From the NCBI RefSeq assembly GCF_006345805.1, contig NC_043007.1, forward strand, positions 33,108,001 to 33,172,000: a stretch of DNA of 64,000 nucleotides, given 5' to 3'. Of this stretch, positions 2,759 through 30,495 are shown in pieces. Below the pieces are notes generated by a model. The model saw nothing but the letters and a program-made list of their open reading frames with translations, was not told the DNA's origin and did not search any database. Each line of letters opens with the position of its first letter. Within the stretch, counting starts at the first letter, position 1. Position numbers and translations under genes: made by a program. This DNA is from Octopus sinensis. Lineage: Eukaryota.

Positions 2759-2896
2759 AGTGGTTTGGACTTTAACTGTCCTTTCTAGCGTAATGGATTC
2801 CTATGATGGAATCCTCTTAATGTGCTTTAATGTACACTGCATTTTATATGAATAATATATAGTCTATTGACTAATTTTTTTTTACGCTAGGCCACT
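2759..2896 (+). ncRNA. Unassigned five-helix structured RNA motif, instance 1
   Basis: agtggt/gccact; ggac/gtcc; ttt; ctagcgtaa/ttacgctag; ggattcc/ggaatcc; tagtc/gacta. Confidence 0.55.
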
Positions 2897-3509
2897 GGTA
2901 GTAGAAATTTCTAAAATTTGTATTACTCTGATATTATTAATTATACATATATATATACATTTGTGTAGTCTCTCACCCCCATATGTATATATGTACATTA
3001 TTAGCGTGTGTTTGGTTTTGTTTGGTTTTTTAATCCTCTGGTGAAATATTAAGCTTCAGAAAATTAGCTTTATCAAGTTGTGTCCCAAACACAAGCGAGA
3101 CAAGCACATTGGCAATTGGCGCATACACCTCGCTCCACAGTGTAATTGAGCTGATGCAGATATTGCCTTTTATTCAATGACACCATGATTAATTCATTGT
3201 GGAGAAGAACTCACAGCATGTGGAATTAATATTTTTGCTCCTCAATGCATGCATTGACCTTGAAAGGCAGCGGAAAATATCTGTCTCACAGAATATTAGC
3301 CGTTTACTGAATTATACACCGAATTCTATGGAATAAATGTATTAAATTTGCATTTTCGTAATCAACTGGAAACCATTTACATATTTAATGATTGATATTA
3401 ATGTTTTTAACACACACACACACACACACACACACATATTCAAGCAGATATGCATATCTGTCTACATATCTATATACATACACACATATACACATATTTA
3501 TATACGCTG

Positions 3510-3797
3510 AGAGTTTTTTATACGCTGAGAGTTGCTGAAGCATAGAACAGACTGCCGGCATCAGTTGTTAGTTGCCAGAGCACTGAATCCTTCAAAACTT
3601 CCATGCTTTCTGAGATTCGCCAACACTACACCTGATTTTCTCCCCTCCATACACACACAAGCATGTATCTGACTCATACATTGTTCGCTTTCCAGACATT
3701 GTTACATTACTGCATGTACTTTATATGCACTTTCTGACAAGTTGTGGTGCACCTAAGCACTGTATACAATAATTTCATTATTATTATTATTATTATT
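3510..3797 (+). mobile_element. CR1/L2-type LINE 3' end with (ATT)n tail
   Basis: Reads ..TLRVAEA*NRLPASVVSCQSTESFKT, resembling the CR1 ORF2 C-terminal motif RVVNAWNSLP..SFK. Confidence 0.6.
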
Positions 3798-3869
3798 ATA
3801 CATATATTTATTCGCATATTTATGTATATGAAAAGAGAAATGCGTGGAGTTGTGAGCATTAGTCAAATA

Positions 3870-4435
3870 TTGGGTTGTCCGGAAAGTTCGTGCCGATTTG
3901 TAAAGGAAAGAAAAAGGTCCATAAATACTTGCCATTACATTTTTAATCAACCAAATATGAACCATTTTGTTGCACAATGCGTCTCCATCTTTCCTTTAAC
4001 TTGAAAATACCCCCTTCCCAGAATTCAGGTGGTTTCATGGCAAAGAATTCATCAAGGTATCTTTTTACGTCATTCAAGGAATTGAAATTTTTACCATTAA
4101 GACTATTCTGCAGAGACCTGAATAAGTGGAAATCCGAAGGAGCAATATCTGGTGAATATAGAGGGTGGGGTAACACATCCCAGCCGATCTGCTGCAATTT
4201 TTGTCTGGTTCCCAAAGCCTCAAGTGCCGAAAATGAACTTTCTTATCTTCCATTTTATATGGTTACAGAATTAAAATAGGTTATAGGAACATAAACCTTC
4301 TTCCATGAAAAGATAGCTTAAGCTGTGCTCTAAATGGAGGTGTAGTGAAATCCTATTTTATGCACTCAACCATGTTCTAAAATAAGTCGAAAGGTAAGCT
4401 ACTATAAATCAGCTCGAACTTTCCGGACAACCCAA
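3870..4435 (-). mobile_element. Mariner non-autonomous deletion derivative
   Basis: TIRs ttgggttgtccggaaagttcg / cgaactttccggacaacccaa with TA duplication. Transposase C-terminus HPLYSPDIAPSDFHLFRSL. Confidence 0.93.
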
Positions 4436-5821
4436 TACATTGATAATGTATTTCTAAACAAATCCAAATTAAACGGCCTCATAGTTCTACTTTAAACTAA
4501 AGCAAAAATAAATATAAAACGTACAATTTCAAAACGAATGAAATGACACCATATTAAATCATGCTTATTCATACCTGGGACATTATTATCTTCCGGTATG
4601 TTAAATGAATTGAAAACCAGACATATCTATTACTTCTCAATATCGTTTAGAGATACTTTATTCAATTTTGGAATTGATTCTTCGATTAAAAGGAATCACA
4701 TCTACTATTGGTCCTTGGCATCAACATCCAGTTGATTAGTCTTAACCTTTCTGGTACGAAAAACTAATCGAAGATTGCAGAGAACAGGGATGGCATATCG
4801 AGTTTTACCACCTGGCAGTGGGTGCTAGCGGCTTCATTGAAAGAAAGATGACAACGCTTTGTTTTTTCTAGCTCGGAGCTGAGAAAACTACAAGGAGTGT
4901 ACAGGAGGCGGTCGAAAAAGCCAGCTTCTATATATATGGCTGAAGCGGGAAGACCTAAGATGGTTTGAAAGTCATAACATGCCGGCGGAAAATAACACCA
5001 CTAGGTGAGACAAGATGACACTAAATTAGCTTCACTGACTGACAGGTGACGGTCGTTTAGAGAATGCGTGAGCTAAGACTACGCGCCTTCATTGGTCAGT
5101 TAAAGTTGAGGCAGTTGAGGCCAGGGAACAAAAGAAAGAAGAAAAAGACATGCACCCAACACCAGAGCTGAAGACACCGCCGAAAGGTGGAGGGGGCGCC
5201 ACGTCAAAATGGTAGAGTAGTAGGGGCCGAAACCGGACGTGGTTCCTCCTGATGATGTCTTAAGCTAACTGGATCCTATAAAGGAGCTGTTGTGGTAGCA
5301 GACCACGAAACACGGTTGAAATTCCTTGCTTACGTTAAGCACACGTTTATATTATACCGGCGCCATAATTGTATTTTAGAAAGAGAGATGCGTTTATTTG
5401 GTTAACTTATACCCCAGGAAACTAGCTATTCAAATAATCCTGGTTATGTATACACCCACTGCTGTAGTGAATTGGAGGATGAGATGTGGTTAACAGGATT
5501 GAAATATCGGAAGATTCGAAGAAATATTCTCGTATGGTTTCGTTGAGTGCTCCACAATTTTGTGTTTATAAATGAAATCCAAGTTCTGCTGGAGCGGAGA
5601 AGTCGTAATGTTCACAGATACCAGGTCGATCTGTGCAGTTGCCGAGTTGTAGCCAAGAGTTCGCAAAAGGCTAATCGGGACGCCATCATGACGAGAGGAA
5701 GACGATTTATTTAAACGATTTGTGCCAAAACAGAGAAGAATAGTGCAATCAAGAAAGAATTGAAAGTGCATTGCCGCTAGCGATGTATAACAATATCAGA
5801 TAATCTGATTGATACAGTGAC

Positions 5822-5996
5822 ACATACATGCATACATATATACATACATACATACATATGTACATACATATATACATATATACATACATACATATGCACA
5901 TGCATATATACATACATACATGCATACATACATACATACATACATACATACATACATACATGCATACATCTATACATACATACATACATGCATACA

Positions 5997-6027
<31 letters not shown>

Positions 6028-6569
6028 GTACATAAATATATACATACATACATACATACCTATACGCATATACGCGTAATATAGAAAATATATACGTAGA
6101 TATGCATATATGTATATGTATATAGATGTATGTATGTATGTATGTATTTAAACATGTATGTATTTATGCGAATACATATACGCACACGCAAACACGCGCG
6201 CACACGCGCACACACGACACACGTATATAAACATTGTCCTGATGGTGGGGTGGTGGTACTGAGAAAGCCTTCATCTGATCCTCGCCCATATGGAAACTAT
6301 ACGCAGTGAATTGGGGTCATATATTTATGTGCTTGTGTGTGTTTGTATTTACGCATGCGTGTATATACATATATACATACATATATACATACACACATAC
6401 ACACACACACGTATATATATACACACACACACACACATATATATATACTCACACACACACAAATATATACATATACAAAAATACATACATACGTAAGTAC
6501 GTACTATATATTCATACATATCTTACATATACCCATACGTACACCCACACGTACATATATAAATGTGTG

Positions 6570-6616
<47 letters not shown>

Positions 6617-6654
6617 ATGTGTGTGTGTTGTGTACCTATCTACATGTATATATG

Positions 6655-6688
<34 letters not shown>

Positions 6689-6697
6689 CATGTGTGC

Positions 6698-6737
<40 letters not shown>

Positions 6738-6780
6738 AATATATATATACACACACACATATATATATATACATAAAAGT
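5822..6780. repeat. (CATA)/(TA)/(CA) microsatellite complex
   Basis: Direct sequence. Confidence 0.9.
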
Positions 6781-7207
6781 ACATATAGATGAATAAATCA
6801 TACACTTCTAAGAATGTATATATTCTTTGTGCTTATTTTTACTGTTATTCGTGCGTAATGGCGTGTCTTAGGTTTCGTACGATTTCAGAAACCAGGAAAG
6901 TGATTTATTTCTTTCCGGGTCACGAATAACTAGTACCAGTTAAACTCTTTAGTAAGTGGAGGCCACTATTAAATTCCTAGTGTATTCATAAATCAAAATG
7001 GCTAACATTCTGCACAAACTTGAATTACAGTTCCCGTATATTTCACATTAATAAACGTAAGGGAATCAAATCAGATCGATATCAGCAACAAGAACACTAT
7101 ATCGGTTCGACTGCACCGGTGTTTGAATCCCAGTGTAATAAACGCGCACATATCCACATATGTATAGTTTAAATTATAAATATTTTATAATTATCGGAGA
7201 ACTTATG

Positions 7208-7342
7208 GTGGCAATAGTGTCTTTTGACGTCTGTTTTTCAGTGCGTGGTGAGGCGCAAGCCAAGCCCTTGTTATAATTATATATATAGTTTTAAAATATT
7301 TATAAAAATTTACCTACGAGGTTTTATTTCCACGCTGACCAC
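7208..7342 (+). ncRNA. Unassigned five-helix structured RNA motif, instance 2
   Basis: gtggc/accac; aatagtgtc/gacgtctgtt; ttt; cag(tg)cgtgg/ccacgctg; ggc-gcaa-gcc; acct/aggt. Confidence 0.5.
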
Positions 7343-7489
7343 ATGGTAAAAATCACTTATGATTTTACCCTTTATTATTGCAGCGTGGAAGTTTTCATTC
7401 CAGCACACGATCTCAGATCAGGTCACTTGCTATGCAAGTACATCTCCGTAAACACATAATAATTATTATTTTAAATTACAAATATGTAT

Positions 7490-8640
7490 GTGCTAACTGC
7501 TAACTGCGTGTGGCAATGCTGCTGGCTTCATGATAAAACCAAGACTTATCTACTATTCCGCGAACCCGAGGGCCTTCAAAAGTATGAATAAAAATCTGCT
7601 GTCTATCCACTGGATACCCAACCCCAAGGCCTGGATTACCAAAAGTCTAGCTTTGAATTGGTTCCACCAATGTTTCATCCCTCAAACCAAGGGATACCTC
7701 CAAAATGTATACATGAAATTCAAGGTGTTGCTTGTTATGGATAATGCTGGTAGTCACTCTTTGGATTTGAATCAAGAGGGAGTTCAAGTTGAGTTCCTCC
7801 CTGCCAACACAACATCCTTCATCCAGGCTATGGATCAAGGCGTGATCCGTGCCTTCAAAGCACTTTACACCCAGAACTCTCTCCAACACCTTATGGAGGC
7901 AATGGATTCGGACGAGAATTTCAAGTTATAGGAGTACTGGCGTAACTTCATGATCACAACGTGCCTGTCAATCATCCATGCTGCTCTTGAAGACATGAAA
8001 AAAACCCTCATCGCATGCTGGAAGAAGGTGTGGCCAGAGTGTGTCCAGAACTTCGAGCGTTTTTCACTTGAAGATATTCAGCACGAGGCTGTCAACAATG
8101 GGGTGAAACTGGCAAAGCTGTTTGGTGGCGAAAGTTTTGATGATATCACACAAAATGAAGTGAAAGACCTCATCGATGCCCAGTCTGAAACCCTGACAGA
8201 CGAAGATTTGTTGGAGTTAACGAGGTCTGCCAGCGAAGAGGAGGGGAAGCGCCAGATCCAGAGGAAGAAGGGATGGGATGTGCCTGGCAATCGAACGTCC
8301 GTCCAACGTTTTAAGGACAGTAAAGGAATTGCAATATATGGTTCGGTCTCTAATTTAAAAATGCCATCGATGCTGCCGTGCAGATATATAAAACTCTCTT
8401 CATCACCATGAGGAAACAACGACAGCAACTCCCCATCACAATGTTCATCAAGCCCACCAACGAAGATACGACATCCCCTAAAACACCTGAAGAAGAGGCG
8501 TCACCTGAAGAGCTTTAAATCTTCTTTGCTGCGCAGTCATTATCTTCCTTATTTTCATCATCATCGTCTTAAATCAATATTATTCATTATTGGTGAGAAA
8601 CAGTACATTTTACTTTAATGTTTATTAAATTATTATTAAA
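7490..8640 (+). mobile_element. pogo/Tigger transposase pseudogene (DDE_1 region)
   Basis: KVLLVMDNAGSH..VEFLPANTTSFIQAMDQGVIRAFKALY, with a stop at 7931 and frameshifts. The probable right end resumes at ~9285-9392. Confidence 0.88.
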
Positions 8641-8649
8641 TATTGTATA

Positions 8650-9241
8650 TCTATTATATAAAATCCGTTCTGTCTGTGTGTGTGTGTGTGTCTTCTAGGA
8701 TCTCGGGCATCCTCCATCCGATTGCGCTCAAATTTTATATGTAGATAACGACGGTATCAGGGCGTGTATAGGTTTTGATAAAAACACAAAAATCGATTCA
8801 AAATGAGAATGCGATCGATAAAGCCGTGGGAACGTGCATTTGTACGTACAAATATATATAAATATATATAATCCGTCCATCTAGATTTACCTCCAGCTAA
8901 TCCGTTTGCATGCATCGGTTTTGTCCTGCTTTTCTTCCGTCAACCTGTACATAACTGCACCTTCCATTTTTTGTTGTTTTTGTGTTCTCCCAGTCAACAG
9001 CCTTATCATTACTGGTACTTTAAACTCTTCGGTTGCATATTTGTGTGAATGAAATGGTTTTTCTTTGGAATAGAAAAAAAGTCTATCTTTATTTCTTCTT
9101 TTGCTGGTGTCTCAAATTTAGGTTAAATCAGTGTTTCTCAAAGGGGAGGCCTATGGGACGGTCAGACAAGTTGTTTTGAGAAAATTTGGTTTAAATGTTA
9201 GACAACTCAGCACCGTCCATTGGACGGGGGGCGTTTTGCTC

Positions 9242-9242
<1 letters not shown>
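8650..9242 (+). mobile_element. Non-autonomous Helitron-like element inserted in the Tigger 3' region
   Basis: 5' A|TCTATTATATAAAA followed by a (GT)n tract. 3' hairpin ccgtcca/tggacgg then CTCG|T. Confidence 0.6.
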
Positions 9243-9281
<39 letters not shown>

Positions 9282-9669
9282 TTACGTTATATTTTGACAT
9301 TTATAGGCATTTTCATGGACCACGTCCAATATTCGCAGTTTTTTCACTATTCGTGGGTGCTCTAGGAACGTAATCCCCGCGAATACCGGGTTACCCATTT
9401 TTGTCTCCGATCTCATTGCTTGATTACATTCGATGCCTCGATACGAAACGTAGCAGAATTCAGTGCCGGCTACAGTTTCAATAGAATATCTGTAGAAATA
9501 ACCTTAACAAAAATAGAATAAGAACGTAAAGCTTTGCCGTCATCCATATTTGACGAGTGAGCTATCATATATACATAAATGGCAGCTTTCTAACATGGCC
9601 GCCATGCGATGATTGAACCCAGTAAAGATAATCTATGTATGCGTGTGTTATTGTACGTACCTATATGTT

Positions 9670-10342
9670 TAAGTTAACACAGTGTACGTGTATGTGTGCG
9701 AGTGTATGTGTGTATGTGTATATGAGCATGCGTGTAAGGATATGTATGTGTTAGTGTGTGTGTATCTGTGTGTCTGTTTGTATGCGTGAATGTATGTGTT
9801 TAAGTAGACGTGTACGAGTGTGTGTGTGTGTGTCTGTGAGTGTGTGTGTGTGCGCACGTGCATGTTTGTGTGTGTATGTGTGTGTATGTGTTTGTGTGTG
9901 TATGTGCGTATGTGTGTGTGTGTGTGTTTTTTTTTTTTTACTGTGCCGAGTGTATTTTGTTAATCTTGAGCATAAAGCGGAAAATTATTTTTGTGAAAAT
10001 CGTAAAGCGAAACTGGAACATATGTATGATACTATAAATCACACCTCCACCCCCACAAACCCACCTATCACACATACACCTCAGCCCCCCCCCCACCAAA
10101 CACAAACACATATTCTCATACACGCACATAGCACACACTCGTACACAGACTCACAGCACCAAAACTCTCACATAAACTTGTCACACACACTCACATATAC
10201 ACACACACACTCGTACACATATGTAATTATGATATATACAAATCTAAATGCACAAATGTAATGTATATATATATATAATATATTATATATATATAACATA
10301 TGTATATATCTCTCTATATATATAGAGAGAGATATATACATA

Positions 10343-10381
<39 letters not shown>

Positions 10382-10490
10382 GTATATATCTCTATGTATG
10401 TATGTATGTATATATACATACATATGTATATATAACACACCACACACACAAACACACACACACACCTATATATATATATATATACATATA

Positions 10491-10534
<44 letters not shown>

Positions 10535-10661
10535 CATATATGTATATATATATGTGTGCGTGTGTGTGTTTGTGTGTGTGTATATATACATATGTATGTA
10601 TATATATACATACATACATACATACATACATACATACATAGAGATATATACATACATATAT

Positions 10662-10708
<47 letters not shown>

Positions 10709-10780
10709 CATACATATATATATATATTATCATTATATTATATTATATTATATTATATTTTATTATTATATTTATTATTT
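9670..10780. repeat. (GT)/(TA)/(CATA) microsatellite complex
   Basis: Direct sequence. Confidence 0.9.
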
Positions 10781-11055
10781 ATAAATGTACTTCCTCACCG
10801 AACCTATTTTCTTGCGCGTACATTTCCATTAATTACCACTCCTCTACATGTACAGTTATCACACCAATCTGGTCCCGCTGTTTCATACGCAAGCACACAG
10901 CCATATTGTCATAGCACCATTAGCACGCCCACAAAACCGCAGTTATATCTCACCGCATGTCCGCAAGAGCTGAATGCTTACTTATTCAGGCATCGACAAA
11001 ATATACAAAAAACACACGTATAAAAGCCACTCTTTCTTCCCTCACATACGCATGC

Positions 11056-11704
11056 AACTCAGAACGGAATTTGAACTCAGAACGTAACAGCAGACGAAAT
11101 ACCTATTTCTTTATTACCCACAAGGGGCTAAACACAGAGGGAACAAACAAGGACAGACATAGGTATTAAGTCGATAACATCGATCCCAGTACGTAACTGG
11201 TACTTAATTTATCGACCCCGAAAGGATGAAAGGCAAAGTCGACCTCGGCGGAATTTGAACTCAGAACGTAACAGCAGACGAAATACCTATTTCTTTATTA
11301 CCCACAAGGGGCTAAACACAGAGGGAACAAACAAGGACAGACATAGGTATTAAGTCGATAACATCGATCCAGTACGTAACTGGTACTTAATTTATCGACC
11401 CCGAAAGGATGAAAGGCAAAGTCGACCCCGGCGGAATTTGAACTCAGAACGTAGCGGCAGACGAAATACCTATTTCTTTACTACCCACCAGGGGTTAAAC
11501 ACAAGAGAGGACAAAGAAGGACAGACAAACGGATTAAGTTGAGTACATCAACCCCAGTGCGTAACTGGTATTTAATTTAGCGACCCCGAAAGGATGAAAG
11601 GCAGAGTCGACCCCGGCGGAATTTGAACTCAGAACGTAACGGCAGACGAAATACCGCTAAGCATTTCGCCCGACGTGCTAACGTTTCTGCCAAGCTTGCC
11701 GCCT
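11056..11704 (-). mobile_element. SINE family B multimer (one head plus ~3.3 body units)
   Basis: Repeating gtcgactttgcctttcatcctttcggggtcgataaattaagtaccag body (resembles a Deu/Nin-type central domain) with junction aaagaaatag|gtatttcg. Confidence 0.88.
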
Positions 11705-12088
11705 TGTTACTATTGTTTTGTTGGTATCAACACGCCCACACATGGACTTTAATTCTAGTTGCAATACCAGCGATTGTGAAGACAACATTAGTCGGTAGCA
11801 TCGACGCCAGTACGTGACCGATCGCTCATTTTATTGAATTTTACCGAACCAAAACACTGCGGATGTAACGACGTATTACTCAGACTTAGACTTGCCAGGA
11901 TTTAGTATCAGAACGTAATGAGCAGGAACACCGCAGTTACCGCAAAACATTTTATCCGCCGATCTCACTGCTCAGCCAACTTATCACCCGTTACATGTAG
12001 CATGTGTCTGTATATGTGTGTATTGTGGGTGTGTCTGTTTGTGTGTATCTGTATGTGTGTATGTGTGCGCGTGTGAGTGTATGTAATA

Positions 12089-12505: not shown

Positions 12506-12552
12506 ATAATATATATATAATATATATAATATAATATATATATTACATATAT

Positions 12553-13300
12553 AAGATAAGAAAATGGAGAAATACATCTAAATCAAATATCAATTACCAA
12601 ATACTCAATCACATACTTTATTAAACCACCACATAAGAGACTGTAGGGTTAAATATAAAAAGCAGAACAAATCAGTGTACATAAAGGAATGTACATAAAA
12701 AAGTGTACATAAAAGAGTAATGTTGTATAATAAGTAGAATATATATAATCTCCGAAGAGGCCTTGTGATATTTTTGTTAATGTCTCATTTATATCTATAT
12801 ATTGACCAACTATAAAGGGCTTAATATTGGTAAAATGAGACATAATTATCGACATGGCCGAAACAGCTGTAAGATCTAATTTATACTTATATTTATATTT
12901 ACTTGTATTTATATTCTCTTTTATATATATTCTACTTATTATACAACATTACTCTTTTATGTACACTTTTTTATGTACATTCCTTTATGTACACTGATTT
13001 GTTCTGCTTTTTATATTTAACCCTACAGTCTCTTATGTTGTGGTTTAATAAAGTATGTGATTGAGTATTATCCGGTAATTGATATTTGATTTAGATGTAT
13101 TTCTCCATTTTCTTATCTTGTATTAGTAATTTGTGGTAAATCATTTTACCTTTGCCCATATAATACAGTAAATGAATTGATTGCATAGCAATCATTAACA
13201 TTTATGTATTAACTTTGTTGGGTACTTCACTAGCAGTATATTGGATATATGTTATCCCATAGAGGGTTGCATTTACAACCCCTTTATCTCAATTTGTAAC
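12553..13300 (+). mobile_element. Penelope-like element end (pLTR) with ~195-bp inverted duplication
   Basis: 12553-12748 is the near-perfect reverse complement of 12921-13119. A hammerhead lies between the arms, and the element is embedded in (TA)n. Confidence 0.75.
12748..12875 (+). ncRNA. Type-I hammerhead ribozyme, CCGAAGA core, ~100-nt stem II
   Basis: atct-CCGAAGA-ggcc..atgtctcattt..aaatgagacat..ggcc-GAAA-cagctg-TA-agat. Confidence 0.72.
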
Positions 13301-13308
13301 TATATTAC

Positions 13309-13341
<33 letters not shown>

Positions 13342-13448
13342 CATATTTCTGTGTGTGCATGTGTGTGTTTGGGGGTGTGGGGGGTGATATCAAGAATTCA
13401 TAAACTTTCGAAAGGATCTTAAAAAATTGTTTTTGGGAATAGTGGATC

Positions 13449-13498
<50 letters not shown>

Positions 13499-13502
<4 letters not shown>

Positions 13503-13719
13503 AAATAATGTGACAGTTATTCGGTTGCTATAATAAAACTCCGAGTTTCGGCTGTCGGGGCGGAAATCTGCTCCGGCATCTCGTCAGTTATTAAGAGAAA
13601 ATATACCATTTTTGCTTTGTTTTAATAACTGACGAGATGCCGGAGCAGATTTCCGGCTCGTCATCCGAAAATCGGAGTTTTACTATGGCAACCGAATAAT
13701 TGTCACATATTATATTACA
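13499..13719. mobile_element. ~96-bp inverted repeat with a hammerhead-like motif in each arm
   Basis: 13499-13594 pairs with 13622-13719. aataa-CTGACGA..GAAA-ctcggag-TT-ttatt at 13532-13592(-), with a mismatched copy at 13624-13684(+). Confidence 0.7.
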
Positions 13720-13914
13720 GATAAATTCCTCTATTTACATAATATTGAGGTCTCGTTCTTTCTTTTGCTGTCATACTATTACTATTCATTTATATATATA
13801 TATATACACGCACATATATGTACACACATACACACATACACATACATTCTATGCTTCCAAAGTTTGTTTATAAAATGTTGCCTTCCAAAAGCTATTATTA
13901 TTTTGTGTTTAAAA

Positions 13915-19103: not shown

Positions 19104-19163
<60 letters not shown>

Positions 19164-19259
19164 GTGTGTGTATTGGGCTGAAATGTATAACAGCATAAAC
19201 AAATGCACAAACACACACACATAGACACATTCACACTCATGTATTTATGTACGTATTTA

Positions 19260-19410: not shown

Positions 19411-19442
<32 letters not shown>

Positions 19443-19605: not shown

Positions 19606-19619
19606 GTACATAATCTGGC

Positions 19620-22600
19620 ATGCTACAATAAAATGCATAGGGCAGACCATCCAGCCCTGGAGATTTGTCCCCGGTGTACTCAGCCAGCATCTCATTGACC
19701 TCCGCAGCCGTAATCGGTCCTCACAGCATTACGCCTCCAGTGCTGAGAGTCGCGGCCCGCCGTCGAGGAAGTCACTAAGGGGCTCCCCACGGTCCAGCCT
19801 GTCGCTCTCTCCGAACAACCGGGCGAAATGCTGGTGAAAAGGCTTTTGCATCTCCTCCTGTCCTTCCATAGAACGCCCATGTTCGTATGTTAAAGACTTG
19901 ATACAGGCTTCTCTGCCTCTCTGACTCTCCACACGACGTGCCCATCCGGCAACGTTAATACACTCTCTCCCCATTGCACGAAGTTTACCTCTAACCCTAC
20001 ACCCATCGTGACTGGCTTTGAGATGTCGGTACAAAACCGCTTTCGCCGCCACCACTCTGGATGCAGAGCCAGACACCATGGTTTATCTAATTCCTTAGTT
20101 AAAGCCCCTTCTATTCCAGTCTATCTAGACTTTACTGCTTGCTTATTCTAATAAACTCAGAACGAATGGCGCGTTTGAGGGCACACCACCACCTATTATT
20201 AATAATGGTGCCGGTTAATGCCCTCTGCACTTAATCCTTAACCCGGGCATAGAAGGTTCTAGAAGTCAAAATAGACTTGTTCATCTCCCAGTACCCTGGT
20301 CTCTGCCTATAACACTTAACTAAGTACACCCTACGCGTCACAAACTTGTTATCCGTGTAGGGGACACAACAAAAAGCGTGGACAACTAAACGTATTCCTA
20401 TCTCTATCCTATTGAATATCCTATCTATATAAGATCTGAGTGAACCGTCGTTATTAGTCCACGTCCACTGTGGAACGAACGGTTCACCTAGTCTATAACG
20501 GTCTACTAGATTATAGTTTTCTCGTAGCCTTTAGGGGCCAGGTTTTCCCCTTCTATCAGTTGAGCCAACACTATCCCAACGTGCAACTAGAGTTTTTGAC
20601 GTCATTAAGAAGTTCTCTAGGTCCCGGTAAAAGCCAGCCTGTCTACATTGTTTTGGTGCGTACAGAGCAACCAACCTGAAGGACTGTTTACTTACGTGTG
20701 TCACATCCAAATTGACCAGCCTACCTTCAGAAAGACTGTTTGCACTTCCAAGTTTTTTCCTGAATAAGACCGCTACTCCCTCTCCCGCCGACTAGGAGAA
20801 ATACATTTCTCGTAGCCATTTAGAAGGGGCGAGAACGCTTGTGGTCCGCTCAGCTTGGACTCCATTACAGCACACACATCTATATCTAGTGGCCTAAGGT
20901 CGTTCAGGAGACAAGTTTGTTTCCATTTCGACCCTAGGCCACGCGCAAATTTGCACCCTAGCTTAATCGCCATAGTATATCGTACTTACATTTTTAGTTT
21001 GGAGAGGAGCTGCACGAATTCAGCTTTCTACCCATCCTTTTCCTTCCGTGGTATAGCCACTGGACTCACCATAAAACTTTTGCCGGCCATCTCTTGGCTA
21101 ACGTACTTGATGTCATCGGAGTACTTACTTTTCAATTCTGTAAATAAGCCCACCTCCATCCTAGCAATCCTGATGTGAGGCGACATGTCTTTGCTAGCTT
21201 TGTATACTTGAGCTCTATAGTGAGCTCGAATAATTCTGGAGAGTGGTGGGTTGTTATCATTAAATGACACAATTTTGTTGTGTTTTGGGGTGGGATTGGG
21301 AAATGGGTTTTAAGCAGGGGATGGTGTGGGGAGTTTTTTCTTGTGTGTCTGTAGTAGCTTTCGATGTATTTTTTTTTGTATGAGGAGGGGAGTCTAGGGC
21401 TGAGGCCTTCTTTATTTTGGGGGATCTTACTGTTGTAAATTCCATTCTTCTGTGATTTGTGGTGTCTCTTGTCTTGTTTGTTTAATTTCTTTGTCGGTTT
21501 TTTTTTCTGTTGATTTCCTTTCTCCCCTTCGTTTTTTTTTTTGTTCCTGTTGGGAAGGGGCTTCACTCTTCTTTACATTCTGAGCGGACGTGACCTTTTT
21601 CGCCGCACATAAAGCAGCGCGGTGTCTGCCCCTCAATGCCAATTCTTACACTCAGCCCCTCCCCTTCGGGGACTTCCGGACTAGCTTGGACCACAATCTC
21701 AATGGTCTGTTCCTTCCAATTCTCCGCTTCCTTTTTTTTTGCATTTGTAAAATTATCATCCTCTGCTCCATGTCGCTATTTATATCACATCTAAGCCCGC
21801 CGGAATCTTCTCTACTTTAATTTTGGCAGATCGTTTACCCAAATACGTTGGTAACAATATTATCTCTTCGTAACTCAACGTCAGGGTAGACATCTCCTTT
21901 TCAGAGTTTCCGTCTGCGAATTGCGCCTCGACCGTGGCATTCCTTCTTCCACAGCCGACGCACTTTATTTTATTCCAAATTGGTGCTAGACATTTCTCTA
22001 TTATCTCGTTTTTACATGACATAATTGTTTTTCCTTAACACTGTATGTTTTATATACAACCGTTTTTGCTGCTATGTTTTGCACTATCTCTTGAGGATGG
22101 AGCAACTTTGTGTCATTCTCCGTTTACTTTACCAGATTTCTGCATTTAAACAGCTCGTCCATTGTTACGTCTAATATCACCATGTTGCAGCCGACCGCAA
22201 CCGAAATCTTGGTCTCTCCTTTTGCACGTGTTTTACAATATCATTTTCGTTTTCATTTAACTTTTCCATTTCAGGGAAATCCACTTTTGACATCAAATCG
22301 CAATCCATAACGAAAAGTTATTACCAAACAAATTCCTTCAAAAGAAATAAAATTTGACACAAAATTAAGTTTTTCAAAGATGTTTGAAAAAAAAAAAAAT
22401 TTTTTGCCAAAATAATGTTTTAACAAAATAAATTTTACCCTGTAAAGGGCAAAAATTGAAATCACTGTTCGCCAACAATATTCTAAATTTTCAGCCCCGC
22501 AGGGCGAAAATTACAGTCAACAGACTAACAACAGTTCAATCTTCGCAAGTGCAATAACAATAAAACATTAGATGAATATCAAATCTGAGCTCACAAACGC

Positions 22601-22625
22601 AGCAGCCAAAAGATCCAACACATAT
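19620..22625 (-). mobile_element. Tx1/L1-like LINE, 5' portion (5'UTR, decayed ORF1, ORF2 APE endonuclease to RT start)
   Basis: ORF2 start MAIKLGCKFARGL..DIDVCAVMESKL is an APE N-terminus. GKSPGLDG-like codons lie near 19650-19675. Lys-rich ORF1 remnants span 21030-22183. Confidence 0.75.
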
Positions 22626-23266
22626 GTAGTAGAGATGGAGTTGCCCGCTTCTGCTAGCTGTAGATACAAATATATAATTTTAAGCGACATACAGTCGTTG
22701 ATTTTGCAAGATGCAAAATATGCTCATTCTAAAATCTCTCTAAGAGATCAACGCAGTAGTTGTACTAACAAGTAGTGTTCGTAGCCACTTCAACATGGCT
22801 GTCCGTTCGAAGAGAATTTACTGCGAACTTTTAACCCCAAAGAGGACACCTCCTCTAGCTTGTTAACGATCCACAGCTGCATTCGAGACATTGCGAGCAG
22901 GGGAACGAATCTTTACCACCTTCTAGCGACGGAACCAGCTAAATTTAAGTAACTATGTTCCCTAACTGGCAAAATTCGCTGCAGAGAAATATTTTCTACA
23001 GAATTGTTTCCGGTATTTTAGCGCGCCAAAACGAAGACTTTTGAAAGATACATGTTCAATCTCATGCGGACGTCTCGTGTATTGTTCTTCAAATTATATT
23101 TGCAATGACGATCATACTGAGGAGCTACGGATAATTACGTAAGTAATTTGCGTAAGTGTTAATAGCGAAACTAGTTTATGATTAATTTATATTTTGTTTC
23201 TTTTCATTTGTCTTGCTCGCTTATGTTCTAGCGCTTGCTAAATTTTCTTGAGAACATTCCTTTCTT

Positions 23267-23386
23267 AGTGGTAAGACCATAGCGGATCTACTTCTAGCAT
23301 AATGGATCTCCACGTAGCGGTCATTCCTCTTATATGTATGTAATATTATTTTTCTGAATCCTCAGATTTTAATATACTAGACCACT
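23267..23386 (+). ncRNA. Unassigned five-helix structured RNA motif, instance 3
   Basis: agtggt/accact; agacc/ggatct; ctt; ctagcata/tatactag; gga/tcc followed by tctta; tctga/tcaga. Confidence 0.5.
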
Positions 23387-23439
23387 GGTTTTAAATTGTT
23401 ATTTATCAAATTAATATTCAATTTTCACCCTTATTATTT

Positions 23440-23498
<59 letters not shown>

Positions 23499-24373
23499 TA
23501 TATATACTATTTTAAATTTATATATATATATATATACATACATACATACATACACATGCACTCAACTATTTTTATAAATATACATATGCTTATACATATA
23601 TGTCTGTATGTATGTGCGTGCGTGTATATATGTGTGTGTATGTACGTACGTGTATACATATATATATATATATATATGCATGCTTTGTGCATGTATATAT
23701 ATGTATATATATATATATACATGCACAAAGCATGCATATGTATCATGCATAAAAGAAGATTATCGTATACAAAATATTACTGTATACATACATTGTGTGT
23801 ATATAAGCATGTGTGTATGCATGCACAAAAGCGGTCAGACACGTGTGGAGAAATAAATAAATAAATAAAGTGAGAGAGAGAGAGAGAGAAGAAGGGAGAG
23901 GGAGAGAAAGAAACGCAGACGAGAGTGCCATTATAGTCTCTAGGCAACCCAGCTCACCAGATTTTTCTGTATGCTTCACCTGTTGACACGCGCAAGTATT
24001 ATTTCTTATGCAACACGTAGATTTAAAAAGCACTATGCACGTGTTGTCGCAGTACACATGTCAACCGTCTGTCACATAGAGGTAAACAGTACTGCACAGG
24101 ACACGCTACTGCATAAACAGCAATCAAGATTCTACTCATATATAAACACCATGTCTCGTAGCCAATCGGCGAAAGCGTCATCGCACATTGCACATGTCTA
24201 TATGTCTATCTGTCTCTCTGCCTGTTTATTTGTCGATCTATCTATCTTTCTATCTATCTATTATTTATATATATATATGCATATATATGTGTGTGTGTGT
24301 GTGTGTGTGCGCACGTGCGTTGAGATATATGTGTGTGTGTGAAACAGACAGAGAGAGAGAGAGAGTGTGTGTG

Positions 24374-24412
<39 letters not shown>

Positions 24413-24416
24413 CATG

Positions 24417-24713
24417 CGGTGCAATGGCCCAGTGTAGGACAGCGGACTCGTGGTCGTAGGATCGCGATTTCGATTCCCAGACCGGGCGTCATGAGTGTTT
24501 ATTGAGCGAAAACACCTAAGGCTCCACGAGGCTCCGGCAGGGGATGGTGGCGATCCCTGCTGTACTCTTTCGCCACAACTTTCTCTCAGTCTTTCTTCTG
24601 TTGGCCTGCTCGCTTAGCCAGCGGGGTGGCGTCATTTGAAGGCTAAAACAATGCGAAGCGCATTGTGACTAGCGATGTTTAGCAACATCTGATAGCCTGG
24701 TCGGTCACGGTGA
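24417..24713 (+). mobile_element. tRNA-derived SINE family C, tail type 1
   Basis: Head gcaatggcccagtg..gcggactcgtggtcgtaggatcgcgatttcgattccc, shared with the copies at 49838 and 60431. Confidence 0.85.
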
Positions 24714-24764
24714 TATAAATATACATGTATGTGTATATACATAAATATATAAATATACATGTAT

Positions 24765-24832
<68 letters not shown>

Positions 24833-24989
24833 ATATATATACGTATACATACATATGTGTGTGTATTCGAATGTATACTTGTATTAGTTTCTGTGTTATC
24901 TGTTTTCAATATTTCTGGTTTTGTACCTAAAAAAGGATTATTAATTCACTCCGCAGGGCTCTTGGTTTCACTTGCTCCAGCTAATTCTG

Positions 24990-25214
24990 TTTGAGTTTAT
25001 AGTTTCTTTCCCGACTCATAAGGGCCAATTTCCCGGTTTTCATGGCGTATATACTACCCACTTGGACGAAACGGTGGTCCGTCGCAGCTGAGTGGACTGG
25101 AGCAACGTGAATTGAGGTGTTTGGTTCAAGAAAACAAGGCGTTGCGCGGTCCAAGAATTGAAACCACCATCTTACGATCACGAGTCCAACACTCTAACCA
25201 GTAAACCATGTGCC
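24990..25214 (-). mobile_element. tRNA-derived CORE-like SINE family D, diverged
   Basis: Head ggcacatggtttactggttagagtgttggactcg; body ttcacgttgctccagtccactcagctg. Confidence 0.7.
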
Positions 25215-25306
25215 TACAGCAATTCTGTATGAACGTGAACAACCTTTTATCAAGGATTTCAGACGGTCTCTTTCTCCACGATGCTTAACATCCAAACACA
25301 CACAAA

Positions 25307-25348
<42 letters not shown>

Positions 25349-25362
25349 TATACATATACATA

Positions 25363-25570
25363 CTCTACTCTTTTACTCTTTTACTTGTTTCAGTCATTTG
25401 ACTGCGGCCATGCTGGAGCACCGCCTTTAGTCGAGCAAATCGACCGCGGGACTTATTCTTTGTAAGCCCAGTACTTATTCTATCGGTCTCTTTTGCCGAA
25501 CTGCTAAGTGACGTAAACCCACCAGCATCGGTTGTCAAGCAATGCTAGGGGGACAAACACAGACACACAA

Positions 25571-25603
<33 letters not shown>

Positions 25604-25765
25604 CATATATACGATAGGCTTCTTTCAGTTTCCGTCTACCAAATCCACTCACAAGGCATTGGTCGGCCCGAGGCTATAGTAGAAGACACTTGCCCAAGAT
25701 GCCACGCAGTGGGACTGAACCTGGAACCATGTGGTTGGTTAGCAAGCTACTTACCACACAGCCAC
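25363..25765 (-). mobile_element. SINE family A
   Basis: Matches 432-861. Confidence 0.9.
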
Positions 25766-25804
25766 TATATATATATATATATATATACATAAATGTATAT
25801 ATGT

Positions 25805-25859
<55 letters not shown>

Positions 25860-25871
25860 AATATATATATA

Positions 25872-25908
<37 letters not shown>

Positions 25909-25934
25909 TATTTATATATGTATGTATGTATGTA

Positions 25935-26135
25935 TAGTTGAAATATATATATATTTGAAATTTACAGGAAACAAAAGACGAAAACAGGTGTATGAACAAC
26001 AAGCAGGTGTATTTGACGCTCGGGTGAAGGGAAATGTCATTTACGTTTTGAGCTTACGCTCTTCAACAGAGAGGAATAAGAGAAAATAGAGAGAGAATGA
26101 AAAAAACTAGTAGATTTAGCAGTCAAGCATGGCGA
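25935..26135 (-). mobile_element. Penelope-like end with a mutated hammerhead (26038-26073)
   Basis: Reverse complement ctctCTGTTGAagagcgtaagctcAAAAcgtaaatg. Homologous to 26395-26610. Confidence 0.6.
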
Positions 26136-26394
26136 ATGATTAAAAAACAAGTTTGAGAGAAGAGGTTCAAAGAAAGGGAGAGAATAATGTGTTGTGATCC
26201 CAAATGAAGGCGTGCATGCGTGTATGCGTATGTGAGAATGGTGTGTGTGAATGCGTGTGTGTTTGCGTTAAGAGAGGCTATTCTGACGTAAGTGTATGCG
26301 TGTGTAAGTGTGTTTGTGTGTGTAAATATATATGGATAAATATGTTTGTATATATATATATATATTTAGATATATATCTAGATATATATCCAGA

Positions 26395-26610
26395 TCGCCA
26401 TGTTGATTCGCTAGCCTCTGCACGCATTTTTTTTCTCTCCTTGTTTCTTTCTGTGTTTCTTTTCTGTGTCTCTTTCTGTTGAAGAGCGTAGGCTCGAAAC
26501 CTAAAAGGCTTGTTTTATTTATATTCCTGAGCGCTATACTAATACAATTGTTTGTTTGTATTCCACCTGCCTTCGTCTTTTGTTTATTTTCATAAAGCTT
26601 CCCGTTATAT
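26395..26610 (+). mobile_element. Penelope-like end with a hammerhead motif (26472-26507)
   Basis: cttt-CTGTTGA-a-gagc-gtag-gctc-GAAA-cc-TA-aaag. Confidence 0.65.
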
Positions 26611-27024
26611 TTAGATATATATGTATAAACGCCTATCCTCTCAACACATGGCTATGATACTCCGTCACTACTTCTGCTCTTGATTAGAGATGCACATATC
26701 ATCAGACACTTTGGTATATGCTCAAATGATACTTATTTTACCTACCCCGAAAGGGGTAGTCGGAATTTAAACTCATAACGCAGCGACAGAAGTATTGGCG
26801 GAGCATCATAGCCGTATGTTGAGAAGATGGGCGTTTATACATCCATTTTTGTTAACGATTATATTTGGTACTTCTCTTGCTGTGTTGCGTGTTCGTTCCA
26901 GTTTTTGCATCTGAGATTTTATTTTTAATCTTTGTAAATGAATATATTTATTTCGCTTTGCTGCTTTTCTCTTTACAAAATAAGAACATACATTGCGGAA
27001 CTGTTATTTTAACGAGTTGTGTAT

Positions 27025-27138
27025 ATTTATCACCCGATGAGACACATCTGCACCGCCGGACGCTCCTCAACAAGTTGTTGAGTCTCCCACCCGTGAGGGA
27101 TCGATGCTGGATGTGTCGAAACAACTGTCGTGATTAAT
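27025..27138 (+). ncRNA. Type-I hammerhead ribozyme, CCGAUGA core, branched stem II
   Basis: atttatcac-CCGATGA-gacacatc..gatgtgtc-GAAA-caactg-TC-gtgattaat, with internal hairpin ctcaaca/tgttgag. Confidence 0.75.
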
Positions 27139-27240
27139 AATAAGTTCTCGCGTATTGCATCTTCCGTCTTTCATTAACAACCATGTACATTGTTATTTAC
27201 ACACCTGTCCATGTCTTTAGCTTTTCTGTAAATTTCAACT

Positions 27241-27282
<42 letters not shown>

Positions 27283-27396
27283 GGTACAAAAGCTTTATAA
27301 CTGTATATTTGCTACTATTTCGTATGTTGTGCGTGCTTTTCAATTGGCACAATTACTACTGCTACTACTGCTGCTGCTACTACTACTACTACTACT

Positions 27397-27431
<35 letters not shown>

Positions 27432-27464
27432 GCTACTACTACTACAACTACTACTACTAATTAC

Positions 27465-27502
<38 letters not shown>

Positions 27503-27559
27503 GTTTTGGGATTTGGTTTGCAAGATTCTTTATGTGAGTTCGTGTGTTGAAGCATATTT

Positions 27560-27788
27560 TGTTGTGTCTAGGGAGAGTCATTTTCATTTTGTGCCTTGTA
27601 ATTTAACACACTCACCGGTAAAATTTCCACTTATTCTTTATTTTTATATTCCTAAAATTTTCGTTGCGTCTTGCAACCTTTTCAATAGTCTTGACACTTT
27701 TCAAAAATAAGAAATAAGTCGAAACTTACCGGTGAGTGTGTTAAATTATAAGACACAAAAAGAAAATGACTCTTCCCAGACACAACAG
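27560..27788. mobile_element. ~87-bp inverted repeat enclosing a minus-strand hammerhead variant (27652-27688)
   Basis: 27560-27646 pairs with 27702-27788. cta-TTGAAAA-g-gttgc-aagac-gcaac-GAAA-at-TT-tag. Confidence 0.65.
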
Positions 27789-27789
27789 A

Positions 27790-27832
<43 letters not shown>

Positions 27833-27911
27833 TTATTATTATTATTATTACAAATGCCCTAATGCAGTACCAGACAGTGGCTCTCATGGTTTCTAAATCT
27901 TAACTAATTCC

Positions 27912-28242
27912 AATTTCTAACAATTCGCGTAAGAGTCCGACGATCCCTATCTGAAAGGTTTGATTTTCTGCCAGAGTTTTGTTTCGAAGCTGTTTTCGTT
28001 ACGCTAGCGCCTGCCATACGAGCACCAACAATTTGATCTCTTTGAAAGTCCAATAGATTTCTCATTTTAATGAATTTTAATTACCTTATTCTGATGATAT
28101 CTGAAAAGAAACAGCAATTTTAGCAAAAAATATTAAGCAACACTATTAATAAATCAAAAAGCATAAAAATAAACAAGCTTTGACAGTTTTATAGATATGA
28201 TGTTATGATGCTAGGTATTTCCATTATTTTGTCCATCCCCTG
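27912..28242 (-). mobile_element. Tc1-like element, left end with transposase N-terminus
   Basis: TA|CAGGGGATGGACAAAATAATGGAAA end. MRNLLDFQRDQIVGARMAGASVTKTA..SGRKSNLSDRDRRTLTRIV. Confidence 0.75.
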
Positions 28243-28394
28243 TATATTTGTATTTATATATGTTCATTAGTGGAACTATCCCTGTACACACCGTGGTGAT
28301 ACTTTAGAGGCTGCGATGCCACTATATACATCATTTTATACACACGATTGTAATACCTCAATATATATTACTGCATACACAAAGACATATAAAC

Positions 28395-28559
28395 GGCGTG
28401 GCTCTGTAGTAAGTAGCTTGTTTACCAATCACATGGTTCCGGGTTTAGTACCACTGCGTGGCACCTTGGGCAAGTGTCTTCTACTATAGCCTCGGGCCGA
28501 CCAAAGCCTTGTGAGTGGATTTGGTAGGCGGAAACTGAAAGAAGCCCGTCGTATATATG

Positions 28560-28604
<45 letters not shown>

Positions 28605-28816
28605 TTTGTGTATCTGTGTTTGTCCCCCCAACATCGCTTGACAACCGATGCTGGTGTGTTTACGTCCCCGTAACTTAGTGGTTTGGCAAAAGAGACCGAT
28701 AGGATAAGTACTAAGCTTCCAAAGAATAGGTCCTGGGGTCGACTTACTCGACTAAAGGCGGTACTCCAGCATGGCCACAATCAAAATGACTGAAACAAGT
28801 AAAAGAGTAAAAGAGT
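28395..28816 (+). mobile_element. SINE family A
   Basis: Reverse-complement match to 432-861. Confidence 0.9.
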
Positions 28817-29494
28817 ATATATACCATTATACATAGAAGGAAGTCTTAAACATATATATATGTGTATATATATATATACACTTAATGTGGTATATATATT
28901 TATCACACGCTTGCTGTAACTATCCATACCCGTCTGTCTAGACCACAGTGTATACAATGCTACTACTTCTGTGTATGCATCATCAGGATATATATATATA
29001 TCCTAGCTATCACAAAACTCAGCTGTATACATCTCTGTATGCAAACATCACACAGCTGCTGCACGTGTGTATAAGAATGGACGAGCGAACTCATTCTGTT
29101 GCAGTAAAAATCGCACATACAGCATGGCGGTAAACACACCGTATGCTAATACATACAGAAAGAAAACTGGCTGTATTGACAGCATTGCATCGTAAACTAC
29201 TCTACTAGACATCAACAAATGAAGATTCATCTGTAAGTTATAATCATATTGGACAGCTAGATGCATACAAATATCCATGAATGAACCTGTCGATAGACTG
29301 ATTGAAGTATGCACGTATACGTGCGTAAGTATGCAGATATATAGATATATGATTTTGTCGACTACATAGTAGTCATGGTGATGTTTTATTTTTCTCACAG
29401 ACGATGCCCAGCTGACAACGAATGACAACAGGTAACCAAGACTGTGCCGGTACTCTACTCAACATTTATACGTATTTGTCTCAATTTTCTATCT

Positions 29495-29700
29495 GTCGCC
29501 ATGATAGATTGTTAGCCGCTACACACATTTTTTTCTCTCCTTGTTTTTCTCCTTGTTTTTTTCTGTGTCCCTTTCTGTAGAAGAGCGTAGGCTCGAAACG
29601 TAAAAGACTTTTTTCTATTCCTGAGCGTTACACTAATACATGTGTTTGTTTTGTACACCACCTGTCTTCGTCTTTTGTTTTTTTCGTAAACTCTCCCTGT
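29495..29700 (+). mobile_element. Penelope-like end with a hammerhead motif (29571-29606)
   Basis: cttt-CTGTAGA-a-gagc-gtag-gctc-GAAA-cg-TA-aaag. Ends in (TA)n. Confidence 0.68.
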
Positions 29701-30018
29701 ATATATATATATATATATATATCTAAAAATAAATTAAAAAATTTAGTAGTTTTTTTAGTAGTTTTGACTGCAAAAGTCCTCCTAGCGTGCGGTACCTATG
29801 AATAATAGTACCCTCTAATAATAAATATATATATATATATAATATATTATATATCTATTATATATATATATATATATACATGCATCAACATATAATATGC
29901 ATTTATATATATATATATATATGTATTTATATGTATATAAGTTATATATATACATATATATATGCATATATGTATATATATATATACTATATACATATAT
30001 ATATATATAGACATATCT

Positions 30019-30061
<43 letters not shown>

Positions 30062-30122
30062 CATAATACATATATATATAATTTATATATGTATATATAT
30101 TATATAATATATACATTTTCAA

Positions 30123-30310
30123 TATGTGACCAGGTGTGTATCGTTGGCGATTTTCCTTCTCCTTGGACCTTTCTTTTTTTATGTTTCTGACGAAGAGATC
30201 CGCTCGAAACGTTAAATCCTCCTTCTTTCTTCCTTTCCGAGCGTCCAATGACACTATATTTGTTCCACGTCCTCGTGTTGTGTTTTCTCTTTGTTCATGT
30301 TTGGATTAAC

Positions 30311-30311
<1 letters not shown>
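30123..30311 (+). mobile_element. Penelope-like end with a canonical-core minimal hammerhead (30184-30216)
   Basis: ttt-CTGACGA-a-gag-atccg-ctc-GAAA-cg-TT-aaa. Lies between (TA)n tracts. Confidence 0.62.
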
Positions 30312-30348
<37 letters not shown>

Positions 30349-30378
30349 AATCTCCGTGTTGGTATATGGACAATTATG

Positions 30379-30495
30379 GTGGTCTTAGTGTCAGATCATG
30401 GCTGCTATTTTCAGCATGGTGGTATCTCCTAGATACCCTAATTTATAATTTTAATAATTATTACCTTTGAAGGTTATTTTTTCTATGCTGACCAC
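30379..30495 (+). ncRNA. Unassigned five-helix structured RNA motif, instance 4
   Basis: gtggt/accac; tagtgtca/tggctgcta; tttt; cagcatgg/ctatgctg; ggtatct/agatacc; acct/aggt. Confidence 0.55.

Follow-up and report, generated by a model that had tools for sequence, protein, structure and literature searches.

This study concerns a 64,000-nucleotide (nt) stretch of the Octopus sinensis contig NC_043007.1 (positions 33,108,001 to 33,172,000), which is referred to in its full length as the window. It consists of AT-rich animal DNA with microsatellites and transposon remnants throughout. Within it we found four copies of a branched RNA fold, all on the + strand and near the places given in the original prediction. 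All four copies are solo, none of them being arranged in tandem. The fold is very probably borne by a transposon and is most likely not a host gene, and its carrier is probably a Penelope-like element (PLE).

Architecture and folding of the four copies

The helices named in the original prediction, P1 to P4, are all present in the sequence of the + strand. In the modelled shape, two three-way junctions would be stacked: P1 encloses P1a and P2, whereas the section enclosed by P2 holds P3, an AU-rich linker and P4, and P2' continues without a gap into P1'. P1 and P2 together form an interrupted inverted repeat of 13-16 base pairs (bp) with invariant letters. The junctions are made of U runs, a single U that is common to all four copies, and the variable AU-rich linker (25-45 nt), and they comprise no invariant unpaired core.

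The minimum free energy (MFE) folding of each copy was compared with that of 200 shuffles. For copy 1, the MFE structure is the proposed fold (z -7.3; none of the 200 shuffles as good), and the named helices have probabilities of 0.92-1.0. The MFE structure of copy 4 is likewise the proposed fold (z -2.7; 2/200 shuffles as good). In contrast, copies 2 and 3 do not fold in this way as they stand. Copy 2 shows a z-score of -0.75 (47/200 shuffles) and a P1 probability of 0.03, and the unrepaired copy 3 has another MFE fold (z -1.2; 20/200 shuffles), in which P2 has a probability of 0.0. When single helices were compared with shuffles, in tests devised after the copies had been seen, p-values were 0.05-0.59 for P3, 0.02-0.24 for P4 and 0.36-0.85 for P1a. 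A 7-pair upstream helix (23210-23216 with 23271-23277) was also observed, which competes with P1 of copy 3 and may represent an alternative fold.

The two subfamilies that had been proposed, one comprising copies 1 and 3 (A) and the other copies 2 and 4 (B), were recovered by pairwise alignment, with z-scores of 6.6 and 8.0, respectively, against 3.1-6.5 for the cross pairs. The cores of the families are about 55-70% alike. A single-sequence model of copy 4 found copy 2 (E 6e-5), copy 1 (E 1.8e-4, in a shifted register) and copy 3 (E 0.34, in the right register, rank 6 among 9 hits). The corresponding model of copy 1 found copy 3 (E 8e-5), copy 4 of the other subfamily (E 1.4e-4, in the right register) and, only at 0.5, copy 2 (14 hits). 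These E-values are rough, and the other hits were mostly microsatellite-rich, at E 0.06 or worse. Given that reciprocal one-sequence models find each other, we regard the four copies as related. A search with a four-copy model found no fifth copy within the window. A sequence pattern drawn from the copies matches two of the four copies and nothing in 100 shuffles. A loose P1+P2 descriptor was rejected as unspecific (16 hits, compared with a shuffle mean of 4.85 and maximum of 14).

The copies had been described as covarying, which overstates the case. When the four copies were aligned by machine, 44 of the 48 cells of 12 P1/P2 pairs were paired. Half of these pairs (6/12) are invariant, and three of the seven P2 pairs, all of them inner ones, change on both sides; the sequence of P1 is invariant. 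For P3 and P4 no sequence alignment is possible, different hairpins occupying the same place, and they are positional equivalents rather than covarying pairs. The covariation score was reached by 12/500 shuffles and the number of double-change pairs by 120/500. Since the covariation is thin and P3 and P4 are unalignable, the four copies by themselves give modest support.

The element around the fold

Public contigs from four runs were mapped on 22250-23440, which covers the element of copy 3 only. In run X1, the summed contig depth was 119,000-481,000 over 23170-23440 and 1,300-43,000 over 22690-23169, compared with 38-300 in most bins 5' of 22690 and about 50-56 for individual contigs from this locus. 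The depth at copy 3 is thus about 1,000-fold or more above its flanks, although summed depth is not a copy number and is inflated by short overlapping contigs. The same depth shape was found in all four runs, and the high repeat depth reaches beyond the arms of copy 3 by 80 nt or more on the 5' side and 40 nt or more on the 3' side. Copy 3 belongs to a very abundant interspersed repeat family. The profile of run X14, which is no more than guessed to be RNA, is the same as that of DNA and is evidence on expression neither way.

Among 40 of 197 variant rows, at least six family-majority letters fall inside copy 3. When six of them were applied, the MFE structure of copy 3 became the proposed fold, and the energy changed from -24.5 to -35.6 kcal/mol. 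The probability of P2 rose from 0.0 to 1.0 and that of the inner P3 from 0.0 to 0.99, and none of 300 random six-letter controls was as good. Five of the six letters restore or strengthen pairs (23308, 23318 and 23325 in P3, 23347 in the linker hairpin and 23376 in P2), while the sixth falls in the loop of P4. In three runs, a loose-end consensus behind 23302 contains a further variant of P3, with G-C in place of an A-U pair but with a U-U mismatch as well. The copies in the window have pair-breaking changes of their own, as is typical of transposon copies in decay. As the majority letters repair copy 3, pairing is kept in the family and has been lost in the inserted copy, and selection therefore acts on the mobile master and not on the locus.

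A type I hammerhead is predicted about 85 nt upstream of the copy 3 fold, on the same strand (Table 1). The window contains three strict hammerhead cores, and the chance of finding one at most 100 nt 5' of any copy is about 1%. PMC4209133 describes hammerheads of this architecture in the terminal repeats of PLEs. Related contigs whose letters differ at many places (23090-23257, 23128-23275 and 23192-23396) chain the hammerhead to the fold. At the hammerhead, the depth rises from 3,500 to 119,000, which could reflect a stop at the cut site, a reading confounded by the long stem II insert of copy 3.

With regard to the ends, related copies of the copy 3 element start after (TA)n near 22705, and copy 3 ends in (TA)n at 23440. 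Loose (TA)n ends were found before 22716 in runs X1 and X3. Single related contigs contain back-jump joints (23439 to 22943 and 23425 to 22956) as well as opposite-strand joints. Partial tandem arrangements, of the pseudo-long terminal repeat (pLTR) kind, and inverted arrangements are absent at the copies in the window and occur only as these joints. Partial tandems, inversions and (TA)n are features of PLEs (PMC8557442). All four copies end 40-65 nt past P1', whereas their 5' ends vary: copy 1 begins at P1, copy 4 about 30 nt before it, and copies 2 and 3 hundreds of nt before it. Copy 4 appears to be 5'-truncated. The copies hence combine (TA)n or AT-rich targets, a fixed 3' end and a variable 5' end, a combination that is not unique to PLEs.

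A further hairpin, P6, follows P1' (Table 1). It is well formed after copy 1 (probability 0.91; 4% of shuffles fold as well) and comprises seven Watson-Crick pairs after copy 2 (probability 0.64). After copy 3 it is weak, with 17% of shuffles folding as well, and still lies within the highest-depth bins. An end motif is common to copies 2 and 3, across the subfamilies (reached by 3/300 shuffles), and the end motif of copy 4 resembles that of copy 2 (19/300 shuffles).

Table 1 Coordinates in the window of the four fold copies and of the sequence features attached to them
Feature	Coordinates	Strand	Remarks
Copy 1, subfamily A	2759..2896	+	P1, P1a, P2, P3, AU-rich linker with 23-nt extra hairpin, P4
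Copy 1, helices P1, P1a and P2	P1 2759-64/2891-96; P1a 2767-70/2778-81; P2 2785-93/2882-90	+	
Copy 1, helices P3 and P4	P3 2795-2801/2808-14; P4 2860-64/2869-73	+	
P6 hairpin (2897-2927) and AT-rich insertion end after copy 1	2897..2945	+	Followed by a (TA)n-like run
5' sequence of copy 2 up to (TA)n tract	6776..7207	+	Putative part of the element
Copy 2, subfamily B, decayed	7208..7342	+	2-nt bulge in P2; P3 loop GCAA
P6 hairpin (7345-7369) and pyrimidine/ATT end motif after copy 2	7345..7380	+	
Repeated element carrying copy 3	22705..23440	+	Depth profile, loose ends and joints in 4/4 runs
Type I hammerhead	23110..23183	+	Predicted; stem I 23110-16/23177-83 (7 pairs), core 23117-23 intact; stem II 23124-27/23163-66 with long insert, GAAA 23167-70; stem III of one pair, its loop palindromic; cut predicted after 23176
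Copy 3, subfamily A, decayed	23267..23386	+	P2, P3 and linker hairpin restored by family-majority letters
Weak P6 and end motif after copy 3	23387..23440	+	Followed by (TA)n
Short leader of copy 4	30349..30377	+	Begins directly after (TA)n tract; small hairpin
Copy 4, subfamily B	30378..30496	+	One G-U pair longer in P1 than originally predicted
AT-rich 3' end of copy 4	30497..30560	+	P6 unsupported, probability 0.0

Additional structures were observed beside the copies. A separate multibranch fold lies 5' of copy 2 (6843-6935; z -2.5 on the + strand and -3.6 on the - strand) and its sequence is unlike the 5' portion of the element around copy 3. This element contains a second multibranch fold at 22752-22830, which is cloverleaf-like by eye only and gave no tRNA call; in this fold, a loose-end variant behind 22802 forms a perfect hairpin. 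Directly 5' of copy 1, a near-perfect inverted pair of repeat ends (2603-2755, with 44-nt arms at 93%) forms a long hairpin, and a DDE_1 transposase remnant (7497-7928; Pfam E 1e-29) lies just 3' of copy 2.

Possible role of the fold and rival explanations

The reading to which we incline, with slightly more than even confidence, is that the fold acts in cis, under selection, as an RNA domain close to the 3' end of PLE or PLE-derived non-autonomous elements, in no fewer than two diverged families. The suggestion that it belongs to a dispersed retroelement RNA is supported by the abundance of the copy 3 repeat, its hammerhead, its (TA)n ends and its restored pairing. "PLE-type repeat" is a fair label for copy 3 and one that appears applicable to the other three copies. 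That the job of the fold is the binding of a reverse transcriptase (RT) or the initiation of reverse transcription, as had been proposed, is about an even call, made by analogy.

The analogy is with a PLE of the anole, in which reverse transcription starts internally, 111-118 nt into the open reading frame (ORF), at a stem-loop downstream of the hammerhead (PMC11167929). In that system, the start lies about 90 nt past the hammerhead cut, the RNA has to extend to +172, ATT is the site cut by the enzyme, and the ends of genomic copies match the start sites (PMC11167929). By this analogy, the fixed 3' ends would mark the start of copying, and the fold, which lies directly inside them, would be the likeliest part for the RT to bind. 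The RNA of the element, its 5' end perhaps made by the hammerhead, would fold into two stacked three-way junctions and a 3' hairpin. The PLE protein, which combines RT and GIY-YIG, would bind this domain, probably by reading the invariant P1-P2 coaxial stem, and would nick AT-rich or (TA)n DNA. Reverse transcription could then start just 3' of the last hairpin and proceed 5'-ward, and such copying from an internal start would leave fixed 3' ends and variable 5' ends. Selection would act on master elements, with inserted copies decaying afterwards. The invariant P1-P2 letters, the U-rich junctions and the free peripheral hairpins seem more in keeping with a scaffold for protein binding than with a catalytic core.

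Several observations weigh against this reading. The link to Penelope is drawn from copy 3 alone, and the abundance data cover copy 3 only; the majority letters, in turn, come from 40 rows out of 197. Only one of the four copies was found to have a hammerhead. The 430 nt 5' of copy 2 contain no hammerhead core, and a hammerhead-like core at 30186 was rejected as a part of copy 4, as a (TA)n tract lies between them. Upstream of the fold, copies 2 and 3 cannot be aligned with each other (92/300 shuffles as good). The energy is lower on the + strand for all four copies, but z-scores are alike on both strands, and the strand preference is weak. In the anole, hammerhead cutting is dispensable and no reads end at the cut site (PMC11167929). 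PMC8557442 provides consensus files for Naiad, Chlamys and Hydra, from which the P2'-P1' motifs are absent, and by eye the fold is not seen at the 3' ends of three octopus consensus sequences given there.

A coding partner was also missing, so that the copies do not qualify as autonomous PLEs: no RT or GIY-YIG ORF lies in line with any copy in the window, which is expected for truncated or non-autonomous copies. A frame with a YIGST motif (7038-7205, motif at 7098) and a later LS..LW stretch runs into P1 of copy 2. By eye it resembles the Hydra/Neptune GIY-YIG (YIG..T...F, later LS..LW), and it is one of two such motifs in six frames. Pfam, a word-indexed search and a protein atlas yielded nothing for it, and the sole match found by HMMER over 1.84 billion proteins is a repetitive spurious ORF. 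A GIY-YIG origin of this frame is unproven.

Instead of serving RT recognition, the fold could stabilise a retrozyme-type RNA or help it to form circles, being kept because the compact, self-paired RNA between hammerhead cuts has to survive or be ligated. This would agree with a hammerhead in a heavily structured non-coding element, with the additional multibranch folds in the copy 3 element and with the back-jump joints in related contigs. Retrozyme circular RNAs are highly self-paired (PMC7229834), and retrozymes are proposed to derive from PLE pLTRs (bioRxiv 10.64898/2026.07.22.740005). We nevertheless regard it as unlikely, given the solo state of the four copies, at none of which tandem hammerhead-bearing units were found, and the size of the element (about 730 nt, compared with retrozyme units of 225-390 nt in the literature accessible to us). 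The sequence-invariant stems and the fixed junction geometry likewise suggest specific recognition over general pairing. Fixed 3' ends, ATT-like tails and 5' truncation suit any target-primed element, and the fold could thus be the 3' recognition signal of a pair of long and short interspersed nuclear elements (LINE/SINE; e.g. R4/Dong, RTE or CR1), with the hammerhead as a passenger. The hammerhead is indeed missing at three of the four copies, and 893 recently active unclassified SINE families have been reported in O. vulgaris (PMC13282606). This explanation is improbable, as related contigs bridge the hammerhead and the fold and contain inverted and tandem joints, ARAGORN and Rfam detected no tRNA-like head in these elements, and no LINE ORF lies in line with any copy in the window.

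The interrupted inverted repeat formed by P1 and P2, its invariant letters and the similar z-scores on both strands could also point to a single-stranded DNA structure of a DNA element, such as a miniature inverted-repeat transposable element (MITE) or the end of a Helentron or Helitron. However, the repeat depth runs past the arms both ways, so the arms are not termini; no terminal inverted repeat and no target duplication at the arms were found, there are G-U pairs on the + strand, and the hammerhead has the same sense. A DNA structure is accordingly very unlikely. Retroelements often carry ribozymes. The absence of any Rfam match over the four copies, either at the gathering score or at E up to 5-10, agrees with the original statement that the fold could not be matched to the tRNA, snRNA, hammerhead, HDV, twister or pistol consensus, and together with the junction U shared by all four copies it would suit a new self-cleaving ribozyme or a host non-coding RNA (ncRNA) gene family. 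Nevertheless, this further proposal, a new ribozyme or ncRNA class, is not supported and is highly improbable: the invariant letters lie in stems, there is no invariant unpaired core, the linkers vary in length, the element already has a hammerhead, and the copies are decaying and very numerous.

The fold is apparently undescribed as a structure, and it was not found described in the literature. The repeat families themselves may be catalogued in Repbase or Dfam, or under a generic label in the O. vulgaris repeat library of PMC13282606. A pattern scan beyond the window gave two viral and 107 metagenome loci, and all 109, scored for GC content and P2 pairing, were rejected as chance matches: their lowest GC content was 0.40, most were above 0.5, and none had the fold. 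A covariance-model search of 100 of these 109 loci gave no hits at E up to 1. These viral and metagenome collections hold little animal DNA and say little about the range of the fold.

If the fold is indeed a PLE domain, its value lies in the fact that the choice of RNA by PLEs and their internal start are almost unknown, with one in vitro study mapping the region and, in its accessible text, no conserved fold (PMC11167929). A domain kept across diverged families in very many copies would lend itself at once to covariation analysis, and it would supply a defined RNA with which the binding and structure of a telomerase-related RT could be studied. The fold is also a possible handle for classifying unclassified octopus repeats. 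A broader idea, which seems doubtful to us, is that it is a conserved domain across many cephalopod PLE families, used by their RTs to select and position the template. Telomerase RT (TERT) has the PLE RTs as its sister group (PMC8557442), and on this idea the fold would be the first multibranch RNA to be defined as a partner of that group, corresponding in function to the portion of telomerase RNA that binds the RT. Should it turn out to be no more than a stability fold within a single repeat group, its annotation value is modest.

Neighbouring repeats and comparison with known systems

Elsewhere in the window, a PLE-type insertion (12542-13300) contains a hammerhead core from 12752, and its segment 12542-12748 is a 96% inverted copy of 12921-13130. 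Its 3' multi-hairpin region (13123-13290) has a part order similar to that of the fold. The likeness proposed for 13120-13300 is seen by eye, but the region was scored by none of three models; the hammerhead region of this insertion aligns weakly to that of copy 3 (15/300 shuffles). Hammerhead or hammerhead-like cores were also found at 27034-27110, 30186-30215 and 26478-26500, in short repeats that end in (TA)n and lack the fold. The window further contains head-to-tail arrays of a 184-bp SINE-like unit (47508-48973, 11065-11655 and 44888-45196), the largest with eight copies at 98%, as well as a tRNA-Asp gene (42880-42951, + strand) and a truncated tRNA match (878-940, - strand). A palindromic insertion of about 270 nt, 80% self-complementary, lies in (TA)n at 13472-13745. 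A 565-nt tandem duplication (939-1486 and 1473-2035; 95%) is located among (TTA)n tracts, and beside it an ORF remnant (2115-2399, - strand) is like a LINE restriction-like endonuclease by eye, with no Pfam hit.

The structures in the 3' untranslated region (UTR) of elements without long terminal repeats (non-LTR elements), such as the R2 3' UTR and the 3' stem-loops of LINEs and SINEs, are comparable to the fold in being cis-acting, located inside a fixed 3' end and recognised by the RT of the element. They differ in that here a hammerhead lies upstream, the joints are of PLE type, and no LINE ORF is linked. Ciliate telomerase RNA also has a closing helix, a first hairpin directly after it and a 3' hairpin, which is a loose likeness in layout only. 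Unlike this RNA, the fold has no visible template or pseudoknot, and it has no Rfam match.

Animal non-LTR retrozymes are non-coding, hammerhead-bearing, AT-rich, abundant and structured, as is the element described here, and they have been proposed to be PLE derivatives (PMC7229834; bioRxiv 10.64898/2026.07.22.740005). In contrast to them, the copies found here are solo and truncated, and the accessible parts of the retrozyme literature contain no conserved multibranch domain.

With regard to endonuclease-positive (EN+) PLEs, the distance from the hammerhead to the end is about 260 nt here, whereas it is about 90 nt in Poseidon PAc and about 50 nt in Hydra-1_Obim according to the accessible descriptions. 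No ORF is linked to the copies, and a two-junction fold of 5-6 helices common to diverged families is absent from the accessible text of PMC4209133, PMC8557442 and PMC11167929. Nevertheless, the pLTR or tail of EN+ PLEs (Poseidon PAc and the Neptune, Hydra and Naiad clades) shares with the copy 3 element a type I hammerhead, a palindromic minimal helix III and (TA)n targets. EN+ PLEs also resemble the elements described here in their 5' truncation, in tandem and inverted joints, which here occur in single related contigs, and in the structured RNA located between the hammerhead and the 3' end (PMC4209133, PMC8557442, PMC11167929).

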